This document shows, one piece after another, positions 42,980-51,545 of a stretch of 64,000 nucleotides of DNA. Position 1 is the first letter of the stretch. Every line of letters starts with the position of its first letter. Source of the DNA: a virus (taxonomy: Duplodnaviria; Caudoviricetes); IMG/VR virus record IMGVR_UViG_3300044904_000088, positions 519-64,518 of that record; one strand, written 5' to 3'. The notes under the pieces were generated by a model. The model had not been told where the DNA came from. It saw only the letters and a list, made by a program, of their open reading frames with translations, and did not search any database. The position numbers and the translations under genes were made by a program.

Positions 42980-43385
42980 TCCCGAAGAGCCTCAAGCACC
43001 TGCTCGCGGTCGAGATAGTCGCCATCGCGGTCGTTTCTCATCTGGACGTCGGTGCCGGTCTCGGTCAGTTCCGCGTCGTAGCGGTCGAGCGCTCGCACCG
43101 CGTCCTCGATATCCGCGCGGACCGACTCCTCGATCCCCTCGACGGCTGGCCGGATGCTGTCGACCAGGCGCTATCCCCTCGGTGGTCTTGATCTTGTTCA
43201 TGCCTGTCTCCTTGCCATCTCCCCGAGCGCCCGCATCCAGCGGTTCGGGCTGCTCGCCAGCGCCTCTGCAGCGATCCTGTCGAGCACCTTCTGCTCGCGG
43301 CGATCGGCCTCGCGGTTGACGCGCTGCCGGATGGCGAACCCGCGTCCGCGGCGGATCTGGTGCTTTGATCTCATGTGGCGGGATC

Positions 43386-44615
43386 TCATCCGAGCGCCTT
43401 CCACGCCGTAAGAAGATCGCCCACGAACGCCTTGACGGCGACCTTGCGGGCGATGCCTTCGATCTGGATGGGACGCAGGGAGCCAGGGGGGGCCTCGATC
43501 TCACGGTCGGGCTCGGCTCCCTGCGTCTCGATTGCGATGGGCCGGAGGCCAGGCGCTTTCCCGATCCCACGGCGCAACTCGGCATCCGGCCCCTCCGGAA
43601 GCGCTGAACCATCCCAGGCGGCGGCCTCAATGGCAGCAACGGCTCCGCGCTCCCGCTGTAGCCGCTCTTTGGCCGCGTCATAGATCTCTCGGTAGACGGG
43701 CACCCGATGGCGCACGATCTGTTCGGCGATGCCCCCGGGCTGCAGGCAGATGGTCCGGCCGATGGGGTTCCAATCGGCTTTCTGGAGCTTGGCCTTGCGC
43801 GGACTCTTGCCGTTGACGACGTGCAGGCCGAGGTAGTGCCAGAGCGAGCGCGTGCCTGTCCCGCGCCGCGGTTCGAGCATCGTGCCAGCGCAAGCGGCCA
43901 CCGCGCCATCGGCGTCGGGCTTGGACCGTCGGGGGCAGGGATCGCCGACGGCGAAGCGCGCCGGCGCGATGTGGCCCTCGGTGCAGGGCTGGCCGGGGAA
44001 ACGGTGCGGATCGCCGATGAGAGCCACCAGGCGGGCCACGTGAACGCCGCCGAGGCCGGGGAACTGCGAGAGCCAGGGCCAGATCGGCTGGCGGCGCAGT
44101 TCGCGCTTCACCTGCTCGGCGAGGCTGGTCCCGACTTTCAGGAGCGACTCAGAGAGCGTCGTCAGGCCGCGCTGCTCGGCGGCGAGACGGGCCTGCTGAA
44201 TGTCGCGCCAGGACCAGGAAAGAGAGGCGAGGAGGGAGCCAGACCGTGCGTCGATCTCAGTTTCGTCTACGGCTTCCTCCTCGTCTTCTGGGAAGGAGGC
44301 AGGCAAGCCACTGGTTGAATCGCCCACATAGTCTTCCTCGGCCTGCCCGCCTCCGTTTGGTGGGGTGGAGATGGGCAGGCCTTGGGCGACGTCGATCTCA
44401 CGGACTACGTCGGCCTGCCCGTCTCCGTTGGTGCCCGGACCATGGTCGGGATCGCTCTCAGTTCGAAGCTCGGTCCGGGCTCCATCTGTTGCGGGAGGAA
44501 AGTGGACGAGCAGGCCAAGAAGTGCATCGATCTCACCAGGGACTTCGGCCTGCTCGTCTACCTCGGCTCGGCCATGACCAGCGTTGTTGTCGATCTCAGG
44601 CAGTCGTTCGGTCAT
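43386..44615 (-). CDS. Tas-like (TasA-type) Nop/IS110-Tnp domain RNA-binding protein, no nuclease domain recognised
   Basis: Short coiled coil then PIWPWLSQFPGLG...ARLVALIGDP.RF, SLWHYLGL, WN, YREIYD..K.R and IARKVAVK.F..DL..W. No N-terminal DEDD RuvC and no HNH; stem-loop arrays embedded in the ORF. Confidence 0.8.
   Translation of the reverse strand: MTERLPEIDNNAGHGRAEVDEQAEVPGEIDALLGLLVHFPPATDGARTELRTESDPDHGPGTNGDGQADVVREIDVAQGLPISTPPNGGGQAEEDYVGDSTSGLPASFPEDEEEAVDETEIDARSGSLLASLSWSWRDIQQARLAAEQRGLTTLSESLLKVGTSLAEQVKRELRRQPIWPWLSQFPGLGGVHVARLVALIGDPHRFPGQPCTEGHIAPARFAVGDPCPRRSKPDADGAVAACAGTMLEPRRGTGTRSLWHYLGLHVVNGKSPRKAKLQKADWNPIGRTICLQPGGIAEQIVRHRVPVYREIYDAAKERLQRERGAVAAIEAAAWDGSALPEGPDAELRRGIGKAPGLRPIAIETQGAEPDREIEAPPGSLRPIQIEGIARKVAVKAFVGDLLTAWKALG
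43472..43653 (-). ncRNA. TIGR-like stem-loop guide array 2 (3 units) inside the 3' part of the tas ORF
   Basis: 33-nt cores at 43609-43641, 43549-43581 and 43483-43515, each closed by its own inverted repeat (e.g. GACGCAGGGAGC..GCTCCCTGCGTC). Confidence 0.8.
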
Positions 44616-44617
44616 GA
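44228..44617 (-). ncRNA. TIGR-like stem-loop guide array 1 (6 units) inside the 5' part of the tas ORF
   Basis: 33-nt cores CGA-N9-TGAGAT-CGA-N9-TGG at 44578-44610, 44515-44547, 44440-44472, 44380-44412, 44308-44340 and 44239-44271, each flanked by a distinct GC-rich stem. Confidence 0.88.
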
Positions 44618-45175
44618 CCAGGCCGCCTTCGCAATCACCTTGAGACTGTCGCGGGCCGGTGCTGCGAGTTCGGCCACGGTCGCCTTGCCGTCGCGCACCA
44701 GGAGCTCGATCGCCCGCTCGGCGACATTCTTCTGCTTGAGGGCGGTGGCCGCACGAGAGCCGCGGTCGGCGGCGATGAACTGCCAGTCGGCGAGAGTGAA
44801 ATGCAGCAGCGAGCGGCGAATGCCGTCGGCGCCGACCAGAGTCAGCGTGAGGGGATCGCCGAGCACTCGCGACGGTGCGACGGCCGCCTGGCGGGCGGAC
44901 CGCTCGCGGTCGGGATCGGCCGCGGCTTGCTCATGCCGAAGTTCGTCGAGAATCGCCTGAATGCCCGACGCCAGGCCGACGCGGATGAGTTCGGTCGTCG
45001 CCTGCTTGTTCGGTTGCATCCGATCGAGGATGGCAACAGCCGCGCGCTCGGCGGTCAGTTGCTCAGCCTCTGCCAGCTTTCCCCCTGCGAGTTCGAGCTC
45101 AGTACGGCCGACGAGGGGCAGAGGCTTGGCGAGGATGGCCTTTGCGGTCATCGGTCGGGCAGCGGCGATGGTCAT
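44612..45175 (-). CDS. Hypothetical protein translationally coupled to the tas-like gene
   Basis: 187 aa helical; its TGA overlaps the tas ATG (ATGA). Confidence 0.7.
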   Translation of the reverse strand: MTIAAARPMTAKAILAKPLPLVGRTELELAGGKLAEAEQLTAERAAVAILDRMQPNKQATTELIRVGLASGIQAILDELRHEQAAADPDRERSARQAAVAPSRVLGDPLTLTLVGADGIRRSLLHFTLADWQFIAADRGSRAATALKQKNVAERAIELLVRDGKATVAELAAPARDSLKVIAKAAWS

Positions 45176-45497
45176 GAGGTGACGGGCCTTTCGATTGAGG
45201 CCGGGGGGCGTAACACCCGGAGACGCCCCCCGGCCGCTGGCTAGCTAGGGCCGGGCGGCAACATCGCCGAAGCGCTCGGCCCTACTGAGCCGACCGGGGG
45301 GGGGCGCGATCGGCTCAGTGCGGACGAGGTTCGGAGTGGCGAGGGATAGTGGGGTGAGCGAGGCGGGATGGCGTGCTGGAGGTAGCCCGGGAAGCGCCCG
45401 GAGGCGACCAGCGGGATGCCGCATGGCGCACCAGCCCGCCCATGGCGGCAGAGCGGCCCTGCGTGGCCCACGCTGGCGGTCCGTGGCTCGTGGGCGG

Positions 45498-45701
45498 TCA
45501 TCGCGTGATCTCCGGGTCGAACATCTCGTTGGAATGGGCCTGACGCAGCAAGTTCAGGAGCCAGCGGAAGCCCGCCGCCCGCTCCTGCATGCCAGCCCGC
45601 CGACAGGCGTCCTCGCAGGCACGGAAGTGGACGACCTGCCGGGCGATCTGCAGGAGCACGGCCTTGCGGGCGGCCTCGTCGAGGGCGGTCAGGTCGTTCA
45701 T
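45498..45701 (-). CDS. Small hypothetical early protein
   Basis: MNDLTALDEAARK..; one of several short coupled ORFs in 45240-46135. Confidence 0.45.
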   Translation of the reverse strand: MNDLTALDEAARKAVLLQIARQVVHFRACEDACRRAGMQERAAGFRWLLNLLRQAHSNEMFDPEITR

Positions 45702-49772: not shown

Positions 49773-51545
49773 TCAGTCCACCTTCGTTCCGCCGACCGCG
49801 CCGACGTAGGTGCCAGCGCCGCCGGGGACCACGGTCATCTCGGTCCGATAGGTGTCCACGAGCCAGAGGGAGTCCTCGCCCATGACCGGGTCCACAACCT
49901 CCACCGTGTCACCCTTCTGGAGCGCCGGGTGGCCCACGATGCCGAAGTCGAAGATGCGCCGGAAGCTGTCTTGCTTCGCCAGTTGAGCCAGGGCCGTGAC
50001 CCCCGCCTCAGCCGCAGTGGCGATAGCGGTCTCGTTGACGATGACCCGCCGGATCGCGTTGTTCAGGGAGGTCTCCATCGGGCCGGTCACACCTTGCGGC
50101 TCCGGCAGAGAGACGAGCCCGACCCCAGCGATGGCAACGGCTACCACGTCCGCCCCGGTCGAGTCCTTGCCGACAACCTTGACGCGAGTAGCCAGCTCAT
50201 ACTCGTCGCTCGACCGTTCCAGCGAGAGCATGTCGACTCCGGCGTGGAACGTGTAGGCCGCGGAGCCGAGGGCGATGGGATCGAAGTGGTAGCAGCCCTG
50301 CTCGTCTGCGAAGCTCTGGAAGCCGACCATCGTGGCAAGCTGGCTGAACGCCGCCGCGAAGCTGGTTCCGTCCGTCACCTCGAAGTCGGCCACGAGGTAG
50401 TCCGTCGTCGTGACGTGGTGGGATGGGAACTGAAGGTGCGTCAGCAGGTCGAGCACGATGTCGGAGACCTGCATGTTGAGGTAGACGTAGTTCGCCGTGG
50501 TGCGCACAGCCCCGGTCGCTCCTACCGCCTGGGGATAGGAAACGATGGCACTCTGAACCAGGGCGTTTTTCATCCAGTCCCGCGCCGTCAGGGTGATCTC
50601 GCGGACCTTCGAGTCCCGTGTCTCGTCCGGCTTGTCGAGGAAGCCGTAGAACGTCTGGATCTTGTTGGCGGCGTCCCCGTACCACTGGTGAACCCAGATC
50701 TTACGGTCGCAGACGCAGAGCGGAAGCCAGGCCGACCAGTCGGCCTCGTCCATCGGTGCCAGCTCGCACACAACCTCGAGACCATCCGAGTCGGTCTGGA
50801 GGCTCTTGTCGATGGAGATGCGTTTCACGGGGATCGGCGCGGTCCCTACCTTTCCGCCCCAGAGCAGCATGGCGTAACAGGTCGTGAACATGCTGCCGGT
50901 CCCGGTCTGCCCCGCCGTAATGTGGATCGACCAGTAGCGATGCGGCCCGGCAGCCACCGATCCTTGAAGTGGTCCCTCGGCCTCGGCCCCGGGGTCGATG
51001 GTGGAGTCCGTCGTCCAGGTCGTCCCATCGTCGGAATGTTCGACCAACCAGTGCGCCCAGCATCCAGGGTTGTTCTCCTGAATGATCCCCTTGACCATCC
51101 AGTAGGTCACGACGGTCCCGGCTCCGAGGTCCCAGGAGAAGCGGCCTTCCCACGACGCGCCGCCGTCTAGCGTCACGGAGTCGTTCATGCCAAAGCGGCA
51201 GTTGCCCGGCCAACAGGCGTCCCCGTTGGCATTCGTGAGCGTGTCAGAGAAGTAACCAGGAACCCAGGGACCGCTGAACGAGGATGACGCCGTGTAGGGA
51301 CGGAGCGGAGAGTTGCCGTTCGGCAGCCCGTCCGTCCTGCTCGGCTGGTGGGTAGACGGATAGTACTGCGCGCCATGGAAGCAGCCGCCGAGGAGGTCCT
51401 GCGAGGTCGGGTTGTTTCCCTCGGGCACGTAGTCCGAGGTCACGTCGGCAGGGTTCTCCAGCTCCACCAGCGCCCGGAAGCCGTGAGCGCCGGCCTGGAA
51501 CTTGGAGACCAGGATCTCTTCCAGGTCGCTGGAGATGGTTTGCAC
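49773..51545 (-). CDS. Minor tail (hub/Tal-like) protein, copy 2
   Basis: Paralogue of 2318-4090. Confidence 0.7.
   Translation of the reverse strand: MQTISSDLEEILVSKFQAGAHGFRALVELENPADVTSDYVPEGNNPTSQDLLGGCFHGAQYYPSTHQPSRTDGLPNGNSPLRPYTASSSFSGPWVPGYFSDTLTNANGDACWPGNCRFGMNDSVTLDGGASWEGRFSWDLGAGTVVTYWMVKGIIQENNPGCWAHWLVEHSDDGTTWTTDSTIDPGAEAEGPLQGSVAAGPHRYWSIHITAGQTGTGSMFTTCYAMLLWGGKVGTAPIPVKRISIDKSLQTDSDGLEVVCELAPMDEADWSAWLPLCVCDRKIWVHQWYGDAANKIQTFYGFLDKPDETRDSKVREITLTARDWMKNALVQSAIVSYPQAVGATGAVRTTANYVYLNMQVSDIVLDLLTHLQFPSHHVTTTDYLVADFEVTDGTSFAAAFSQLATMVGFQSFADEQGCYHFDPIALGSAAYTFHAGVDMLSLERSSDEYELATRVKVVGKDSTGADVVAVAIAGVGLVSLPEPQGVTGPMETSLNNAIRRVIVNETAIATAAEAGVTALAQLAKQDSFRRIFDFGIVGHPALQKGDTVEVVDPVMGEDSLWLVDTYRTEMTVVPGGAGTYVGAVGGTKVD

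Follow-up and report, generated by a model that had tools for sequence, protein, structure and literature searches.

The present study analyzes a guide-RNA locus in a 64,000-nt stretch of phage DNA (IMG/VR record IMGVR_UViG_3300044904_000088, positions 519 to 64,518; Duplodnaviria, Caudoviricetes), referred to here in its entirety as the window. The virus record is 64,518 nt long and complete by CheckV, and the window covers nearly all of it. We consider it likely that this is a phage stem-loop TIGR-TasA system in which the whole guide repertoire lies in the coding sequence of the effector gene, tasA, and in which the guide units are selected as RNA and are also translated as disordered linkers. 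Nine units make up the whole guide set detected in the record, and all nine fall within the tasA coding sequence, six of them (array 1, U1-U6) forming its first 125 codons and three (array 2, U7-U9) separating the Nop core from the last helix. A first-pass annotation made from the sequence alone had proposed guide arrays written in frame inside the effector gene, and the nine units located in the tasA open reading frame (ORF) bear this out. The locus is an instance of a recently described kind, here with all of its guides intragenic.

Identity of the effector and nature of the guide units

Sequence comparison and modelling indicate that the encoded protein is a nuclease-less TIGR-associated protein, TasA. 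The only real sequence match in the PDB by phmmer was 9mty_A (E 2.5e-10), and the same entry, TIGR-TasR with tigRNA and target DNA, was the top Foldseek match (E 1.2e-6, TMt 0.55, root mean square deviation 2.8, 291 columns), followed at ranks 3-10 by TasH entries; a TIGR-Tas system had also been the first-pass assignment, and both the best sequence and the best fold matches are to TasR/TasH complexes. An AlphaFold2 model built from 27 homologues had a mean predicted local distance difference test score (pLDDT) of 72.7, with values above 90 for residues ~126-330 and for a helix at 382-408, and above 95 for two long helices, 128-148 and 152-174, which are candidates for the dimerising coiled coil expected ahead of the Nop core. 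Values below 50 were confined to residues 1-125 (with short gaps) and ~331-371, and these two low-confidence parts of the model coincide with the two arrays. An alternative explanation could be a remnant of an IS110-family transposase with bridge-RNA-like hairpins, for which one may cite the match to phrog_4285, 'transposase', in PHROGs (E 2.2e-21), a lone sub-threshold Pfam match to Transposase_20 over residues 182-207 (17.6 bits with the cut-off at 21.3, E 0.0052), and the appearance of IS621 recombinases among the weak fold matches, but this we regard as extremely improbable. Tas structures match far better (E 1.2e-6 versus 0.65 for IS621), there is no DEDD/RuvC N-terminal domain in a protein whose residues 1-125 are guide units of low pLDDT, and the locus holds nine tandem dual-spacer units and not one bridge RNA. 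Because the best matches are to 9mty and TasH and no RuvC or HNH match was found in Pfam at E up to 1, the protein is read as TasA rather than as an IS110 transposase.

Each unit spans 60 nt and consists of a variable stem of 13-16 bp around a 30-nt loop, GA-N9-TGAGATCGA-N9-TGG, laid out as a 5′ arm of 15 nt, the 30-nt loop GA-N9-TGAGATCGA-N9-T and a second arm that starts with GG; with the box nucleotides written out, the loop reads GA-N9-TGA GAn CGA-N9-TGG. The flanking GA...UGA and GA...UGG nucleotides are assigned to box C/D by position, with the two 9-nt spacers between them. The units fit the published definition of a stem-loop TIGR array, i.e. two 8-12-nt spacers, box C/D flanks, and variable palindromic flanks replacing the edge repeats (Faure et al. 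2025, PMC12045711, section 9), and a tandem arrangement with variable, stem-forming palindromic flanks was found for all nine. A repeat search returned six inverted repeats in the ORF with arms exactly 30 nt apart, a hairpin scan recovered all nine units, and nine 60-mers centred on the core aligned without gaps and with 10 invariant columns. The 8-mer core GAGATCGA, exact in 5/9 units and inexact in U3, U5, U7 and U8, has 16 copies in the window versus 4.3 expected by chance. Searched with a covariance model of the nine units, the window yielded those nine and no others (E 3.6e-12 to 1.3e-8; E = 2 for the next match), as did the full 64,518-nt record. A search of Rfam gave no family, its single row being mir-483 at E 0.19, far under the gathering score.

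Patterns of conservation indicate that the units are selected as RNA and that the linker peptide sequence is a by-product, or shadow, of the RNA motif. Pairing was found in 91.9% of the cells of the 15-bp stems compared with 61.7 +/- 2.9% in shuffles (0/500 reached the observed value), fell to 32-45% when the partner was slid by 1-3 columns, and was accompanied by both-sided changes in 13/15 stem pairs across the nine units, so that arm sequences vary between units yet remain complementary. The RNA of array 1 folds as six hairpins, with z = -5.04 against dinucleotide shuffles. The conserved box nucleotides (G16 A17, T27 G28 A29 G30 A31, C33 G34 A35 and T45 G46 G47) are equally conserved whether the units of relatives are coding (116) or non-coding (31); over these 147 units the nucleotides flanking the spacers are 80-100% conserved, and the spacers themselves are variable. 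Compared with the closest relative, P0002, residues coded by spacers were the same in 5 cases and different in 42, those coded by stems 61 and 17, and those of the rest of the protein 194 and 34, and spacers thus turn over rapidly inside a conserved scaffold. The matching boxes in non-coding units and the turnover of spacer-coded residues are the reasons for regarding the peptide motif as a shadow. In this comparison, P0001 against P0002, homologous units keep their stems and swap nearly all spacers, and the units that come and go do so in lengths divisible by 3.

It could be held instead that these are protein repeats, with an acidic A-E-x3-E-I-D-x3-G linker selected as peptide and the hairpins incidental, since the motif recurs in all homologues and the N-terminal region is strongly acidic (31 D+E versus 6 K+R in residues 1-125). 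This is very unlikely: the same nucleotides are conserved in the 31 units outside any tas frame, the stems are kept through compensatory changes, hardly any spacer-coded residue persists from one close relative to the next, and stem-loop tigRNAs of such form are experimentally established in accounts by Xu et al. (bioRxiv 10.64898/2026.09.09.750476) and Faure et al. (2025, PMC12045711). Third codon positions of the spacers also lack a coding bias, with G+C by codon position of 0.685/0.576/0.595 in coding units and 0.683/0.576/0.53 in non-coding units and without an excess at the third position (GC3); coding and non-coding units being alike in composition, GC3 is uninformative on whether spacers are translated.

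Codon phase and probable translation of the units

The arrays are compatible with continuous reading in tasA. Distances between unit cores of 63, 75, 60, 72, 69, 630, 60 and 66 nt, all multiples of 3, had been given in the first-pass annotation, and recomputation returned identical values; the unit peptides quoted there are likewise present in the ORF translation. Units are read in a fixed phase, GCC GAN nnn nnn nnT GAG ATC GAN nnn nnn nnT GGC, so that each translates as an acidic A-(D/E)-x3-E-I-(D/E)-x3-G linker. The TGA box had been described as invariant and never in frame; it is indeed never in frame, but it is not invariant, with TGT in U5, TGG in U8 and TGA in 7/9 units.

Relatives allow the phase to be followed across many loci. 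There were 154, all of them unannotated metagenome or virus proteins; a pattern scan of genome contigs gave 83 matches, none a relative, and the cultured-phage collection gave no tblastn match. An alignment of 27 sequences varies in length at four sites, namely the N-terminus, a loop flanked by two invariant cysteines, the stretch from ...ERGA to LRP..., and the end beyond the last helix, and every extra piece carries (A/G)(D/E)x3-4(E/V)(I/S/T)(D/E)x3G. The number of in-frame units at these shared positions thus differs from one homologue to another, a pattern that had been put forward as a check of the proposal. From 9 viral and 64 metagenome loci that were fetched, the covariance model gave 257 matches at E <= 1, of which 252 were on the tas strand (a count that includes five duplicate loci), and the tas frame was mapped by tblastn. 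Among the best 150 matches, after removal of the duplicates L007, L020, L028, L029 and L037, units inside the tas frame were in phase 0 in 118 cases, phase 2 in one and phase 1 in none. In a wider set (E <= 0.3, L018 also removed and the window added, giving 220 tas-strand units in loci with a mapped core), those inside the tas open frame were distributed over phases 0/2/1 as 169/3/0 of 172, and those outside it over phases 0/1/2 as 8/27/13. With 169/172 in one phase, unit phase in homologues is not random. The three phase-2 units are all at the very 5′ end of the stop-to-stop frame, probably upstream of the true start. Adjacent units no more than 200 nt apart were spaced by multiples of 3 in 81/84 coding pairs compared with 3/14 non-coding pairs, and the rule of three is therefore not inherent to arrays as such.

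These sequence patterns make it very probable that the units, the N-terminal array included, are translated. An in-frame ATG or GTG is positioned 18-27 nt before the core of the first unit, within its 5′ arm, in 21/30 loci with N-terminal units, often as ATGA or GTGA and preceded at 8-12 nt by a run resembling GGAG or AAGG, and six further loci have a start at -33 or -36. In the window the 5′ arm of U1 holds both the tas ATG and the TGA of the upstream gene; the overlap, ATGA, had been noted before and is the same in ORF coordinates, with the tas ATG (44615-44613) on the upstream TGA (44614-44612). It is possible, if quite unlikely, that the six N-terminal units form an untranslated 5′ leader, with TasA starting internally (e.g. 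at a GTG in U5 or later) and the open frame a side effect of high G+C. Long spurious ORFs abound on both strands, the open frame extends past the ATG and measures 514 codons between stops, residues 1-125 lack predicted structure, and many homologues are only 290-300 aa long. A leader of this kind would not account for the N-terminal in-frame units being in phase 0 in 29/30 cases when non-coding units of relatives are stop-free about equally often in phase 0 (27/38) and phase 2 (25/38), nor for the restriction of the three phase-2 units to the 5′ edge, the fixed place of the start codon in the arm of the first unit, and array spacings that are all multiples of 3 when so few non-coding pairs keep that rule. 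A start downstream of array 1 had been named as an outcome that would tell against the proposal; instead, the start codon is at the first unit in most loci.

For the internal array translation appears close to certain, because the conserved last helix depends on reading through the array. This helix has seven residues invariant in 27 sequences (R390, A393, K395, F397, D400, L401 and L402), and the core and the last helix share one frame in 48/48 non-redundant loci. The three units that had been placed between YDAAKERL and IEGIARKVAVK are by position U7-U9, and the claim that these C-terminal units must be translated is upheld by the conservation of the helix, its high pLDDT and the shared frame.

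The preference of coding units for phase 0 is not accounted for by avoidance of stops, given the near-equal openness of phases 0 and 2 in non-coding units. The boxes are read as Asp/Glu in phase 0 and as Arg in phase 2, and non-coding units read in phase 2 would give 18% basic and 4% acidic residues, compared with 10% basic and 16% acidic in phase 0. One reading of the phase lock is selection for an acidic tail that is harmless or autoinhibitory; the other is that in-frame duplication has passed the phase on.

A further site of insertion is seen in relatives, in which 22 in-frame units occur within the loop between the two invariant cysteines (C227 and C242 here); examples are L002:3331-3388, L034:709-769 and L043:2670-2781. 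These cysteines belong to a C-H-C-C quartet, C211, H215, C227 and C242. In the window the inter-cysteine site (43899-43958) has a hairpin of 15-16 bp with a 28-nt loop and no box nucleotides, possibly by chance. It was considered as a decayed tenth unit and rejected, scoring 5.6 bits by the covariance model; comparable hairpins occur at ~0.3 per kb elsewhere (19 in the remaining 62.7 kb of the window). In another relative, P0003 (62% identical, 343 aa, on 4 contigs), the helix before array 2 is replaced, and the replacement matches the opposite-strand reading of the U8-U9 region (window 43365-43607, plus strand; 18/24 identical, E 3e-9), a picture that suggests either local inversion between arms of hairpins or an artefact of assembly.

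Table 1. Coordinates of tasA, its guide units and the upstream gene in the window, and of units inside the upstream gene of relatives (locus:position).
Feature	Position	Strand	Evidence and remarks
tasA gene	43386..44615	-	ORF listing, 409 aa; Nop-type RNA-binding core (residues ~126-330) and last helix (380-408), without nuclease domain
U1, stem-loop tigRNA	44565..44624	-	covariance model 55.2 bits; alignment; fold
U2	44502..44561	-	covariance model 61.6 bits; inverted repeat I10
U3, core TGAGAGCGA	44427..44486	-	covariance model 58.7 bits; hairpin scan; alignment
U4	44367..44426	-	covariance model 65.1 bits; inverted repeat I9
U5, degenerate core TGTGGGCGA	44295..44354	-	covariance model 57.3 bits; hairpin scan; alignment
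U6	44226..44285	-	covariance model 61.1 bits; inverted repeat I11
U7, degenerate core TGAGGCCGC, opens internal array	43596..43655	-	covariance model 49.1 bits; hairpin scan; alignment
U8, core TGGGATCGG	43536..43595	-	covariance model 53.9 bits; inverted repeat I13
U9	43470..43529	-	covariance model 63.6 bits; inverted repeat I12
Upstream partner gene, 187 aa	44612..45175	-	ORF listing; stop overlaps tas start (ATGA)
Units in partner gene of relatives	L001:2600, L002:2615, L003:2375, L006:2202, L013:551, L014:757, L016:733, L019:2163, L025:144, L027:1007, L030:1126, L031:695, L042:1472		

Upstream partner, proposed regulation and targets

The gene upstream of tasA encodes a protein of a family with the motif EGADGxR..L..FTLAD. 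Among 32 loci with 700 nt of flank or more, 25 have a member of this family immediately upstream of tas, in many cases with the two genes overlapping at ATGA or GTGA, and the seven that lack it belong to the most distant Tas relatives. All 13 units inside the upstream partner ORF of relatives are in phase 0 of the partner frame, and the excess of phase 1 units upstream of tas arises because they sit in the frame of this gene. In these relatives guides are therefore embedded in frame in a second gene too and not in tas alone. The partner gene of the window has no unit, with no minus-strand match above 5.1 bits in 44615-45175 with filters off. Modelling of the partner gave a helical structure (pLDDT 81) in which residues 90-103 form a segment of low confidence. 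Sequence searches of Pfam, PHROGs and the PDB returned no match, nor did Foldseek against pdb or BFVD at E <= 0.001; VIA-align reached a Z of at most 5.8, with helical proteins, the clusters found in the Atlas (0.82) were all unnamed, and a homology search returned only 'hypothetical protein'. Identity of the partner with the tasParB of Faure et al. was considered and could not be demonstrated.

By analogy with characterised TasA proteins, TasA would dimerise and bind a processed unit, the complex would bind DNA whose two strands match spacers A and B, and it would act as a repressor of transcription and not as a nuclease. TasA proteins are described as RNA-guided repressors in section 12 of Xu et al. 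(bioRxiv 10.64898/2026.09.09.750476) and in Guan et al. (bioRxiv 10.64898/2026.08.11.744272). The guide should not target its own array because there both spacers match the same DNA strand, an argument made by Faure et al. (2025, PMC12045711). One transcript would serve as mRNA and as pre-tigRNA, and excision of a unit would destroy that copy of the message, processing and translation of one molecule excluding each other; guide maturation could plausibly provide negative autoregulation in this way. In the predicted fold an extended stem of U1 pairs the AAGGCGG run and the ATG, so that the Shine-Dalgarno sequence (SD) and start of tas may be sequestered in the U1 stem. Together with the ATGA overlap, this sequestration suggests that tasA translation depends on ribosomes arriving from the upstream gene, i.e. 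tasA may be translated mainly by ribosomes that terminate there.

Alternatively, the units may be translated while tigRNAs arise from internal promoters or another transcript pool, leaving synthesis of guide and of TasA uncoupled and with no built-in autoregulation. We regard this as possible though on the doubtful side, and as noted in the text of Xu et al. (bioRxiv 10.64898/2026.09.09.750476), sequence alone cannot separate processing of the tas transcript from internal promoters. A consensus scan found no sigma-70-like promoter in 43000-45700, a weak argument against internal promoters since the consensus may not be that of the host, and units abut (U1/U2, U7/U8/U9), which leaves no room for a promoter between them. 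The same interval has two terminator-like sites, both on the wrong strand.

A more elaborate and rather unlikely proposal joins these elements as translated-only guides in a two-gene operon, with a selected acidic peptide and a three-way switch of partner, TasA and guide. Guide units of this clade would then occur only in translated sequence and in one phase, even though a second phase is equally stop-free; the acidic tail could, for instance, mimic nucleic acid and keep apo-TasA off DNA or RNA until a guide is loaded, or alternatively the peptide could support guide loading in cis on the nascent chain. The partner would supply the processing or assembly factor that has been missing from stem-loop TIGR systems, and tasA would be translated only once ribosomes finishing the upstream gene had melted U1, which hides the SD and ATG.

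Returning to the reading of the locus as a TIGR-TasA system with translated intragenic guides, several observations weigh against it. Degenerate cores in U5, U7 and U8 may indicate decay, and array 2, taken by itself, has a fold only moderately better than that of its shuffles (z = -1.91). CTT (the CUU motif, a processing site in stem-loop TIGR arrays) occurs at the 3′ stem base (+29 to +36) in 38/147 units versus 14 at mirrored 5′ positions, a modest enrichment; in the window the motif was seen by eye after U2, U5, U6 and U7. An in-frame GTG inside U5 (codon 96) could serve as an alternative start, and the phase lock could be inherited via in-frame duplication rather than selected. A scan of the phage genome for targets of the nine guides (rc(A)+B and B+rc(A), gaps of 0-2 nt, both strands of the window) found none with fewer than 3 mismatches in 18 nt; 15 sites had 3 mismatches, compared with a mean of 9.0 in 30 spacer shuffles, which is not a significant excess.

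Upstream of the operon are two G+C-rich palindromes, 45200-45234 and 45277-45326. The second holds a 15/18 match to the predicted U9 target (B+rc(A), 45288-45306); taken alone the match is not significant, but its location is the one expected of a self-repressing operator. The target scan also turned up, incidentally, an identical 19-mer at 2931-2949 and 50386-50404.

Relation to described systems and wider meaning

Guides inside coding sequence have a precedent. The first-pass annotation knew of no description of such an architecture, but one is given in sections 5 and 11 of a September 2026 preprint (Xu et al., bioRxiv 10.64898/2026.09.09.750476), where a survey of 20,096 loci and 2,559 stem-loop arrays is reported and small-RNA sequencing of Bifidobacterium longum (section 11) shows TasA tigRNAs embedded in coding sequence. 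The idea linking tigRNA maturation to translation is also already in that text, and a full-text literature search found no other paper treating intragenic guides. According to the sections cited, BlTasA resembles the protein studied here in being a nuclease-less Nop-domain protein with two-spacer stem-loop units placed in disordered regions. It differs in also having upstream units, whereas the complete phage genome studied here has all nine of its units inside the gene, and in the site of the internal array, which is a wedge loop in BlTasA and lies before the last helix here. In the sections and passages of Xu et al. that were consulted, we found no mention of a single fixed codon phase, a start in the first stem or a unit-bearing partner gene, and the strings 'autoregul', 'accessory', 'neighbor' and 'co-occur' are absent from the text searched. 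The single-phase lock, the unit-bearing upstream partner in relatives and the sequestration of the start codon in unit 1 are possibly new points.

The TasA array from the gut of Peromyscus leucopus, in the account of PMC12045711, is similar in its lack of a nuclease, its palindromic variable stems and its two box C/D-flanked spacers of 8-12 nt, but it consists of three subarrays around the gene with intergenic separation and is not described there as translated. The structure of that TasA, as reported by Guan et al. (bioRxiv 10.64898/2026.08.11.744272), has an unresolved N-terminal loop. TaTasR and SpTasH (PDB 9mty, 9w04) share the Nop core fold and, by analogy, tandem-spacer recognition of both DNA strands; unlike the present protein they have RuvC or HNH nucleases, 36-nt dual-repeat tigRNAs, their own Y/H loop processing and arrays beside the gene. 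The IS110/IS621 bridge-RNA recombinases have a related C-terminal RNA-binding domain and a structured guide RNA whose sequence adjoins or overlaps the gene, but here there is no DEDD domain, recombination is not expected, and the guides are many and small in place of a single bispecific bridge RNA. In eukaryotes, box C/D snoRNAs with protein-coding host genes are freed when the host transcript is processed; they are intronic and untranslated. The guides of this phage are alike in being box C/D-like and derived from a host transcript, and differ in that they are proposed to be exonic and read by ribosomes.

The locus is a clean natural case in which one stretch of RNA carries a structured guide together with a reading frame, and the complete phage genome keeps its guides nowhere but in the effector gene. 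Double coding leaves the spacers free, with ~11% of spacer-coded residues conserved compared with 78% in stems relative to the closest relative, and the protein tolerates guide units as disordered acidic linkers. For TIGR-Tas systems, the strict single-phase rule, the start buried in the first guide stem and the conserved partner gene are leads that perhaps go beyond the preprint, and the partner gene could bear on how stem-loop tigRNAs are processed. For annotation, phage 'transposase' genes with long disordered acidic tails may hide guide arrays.

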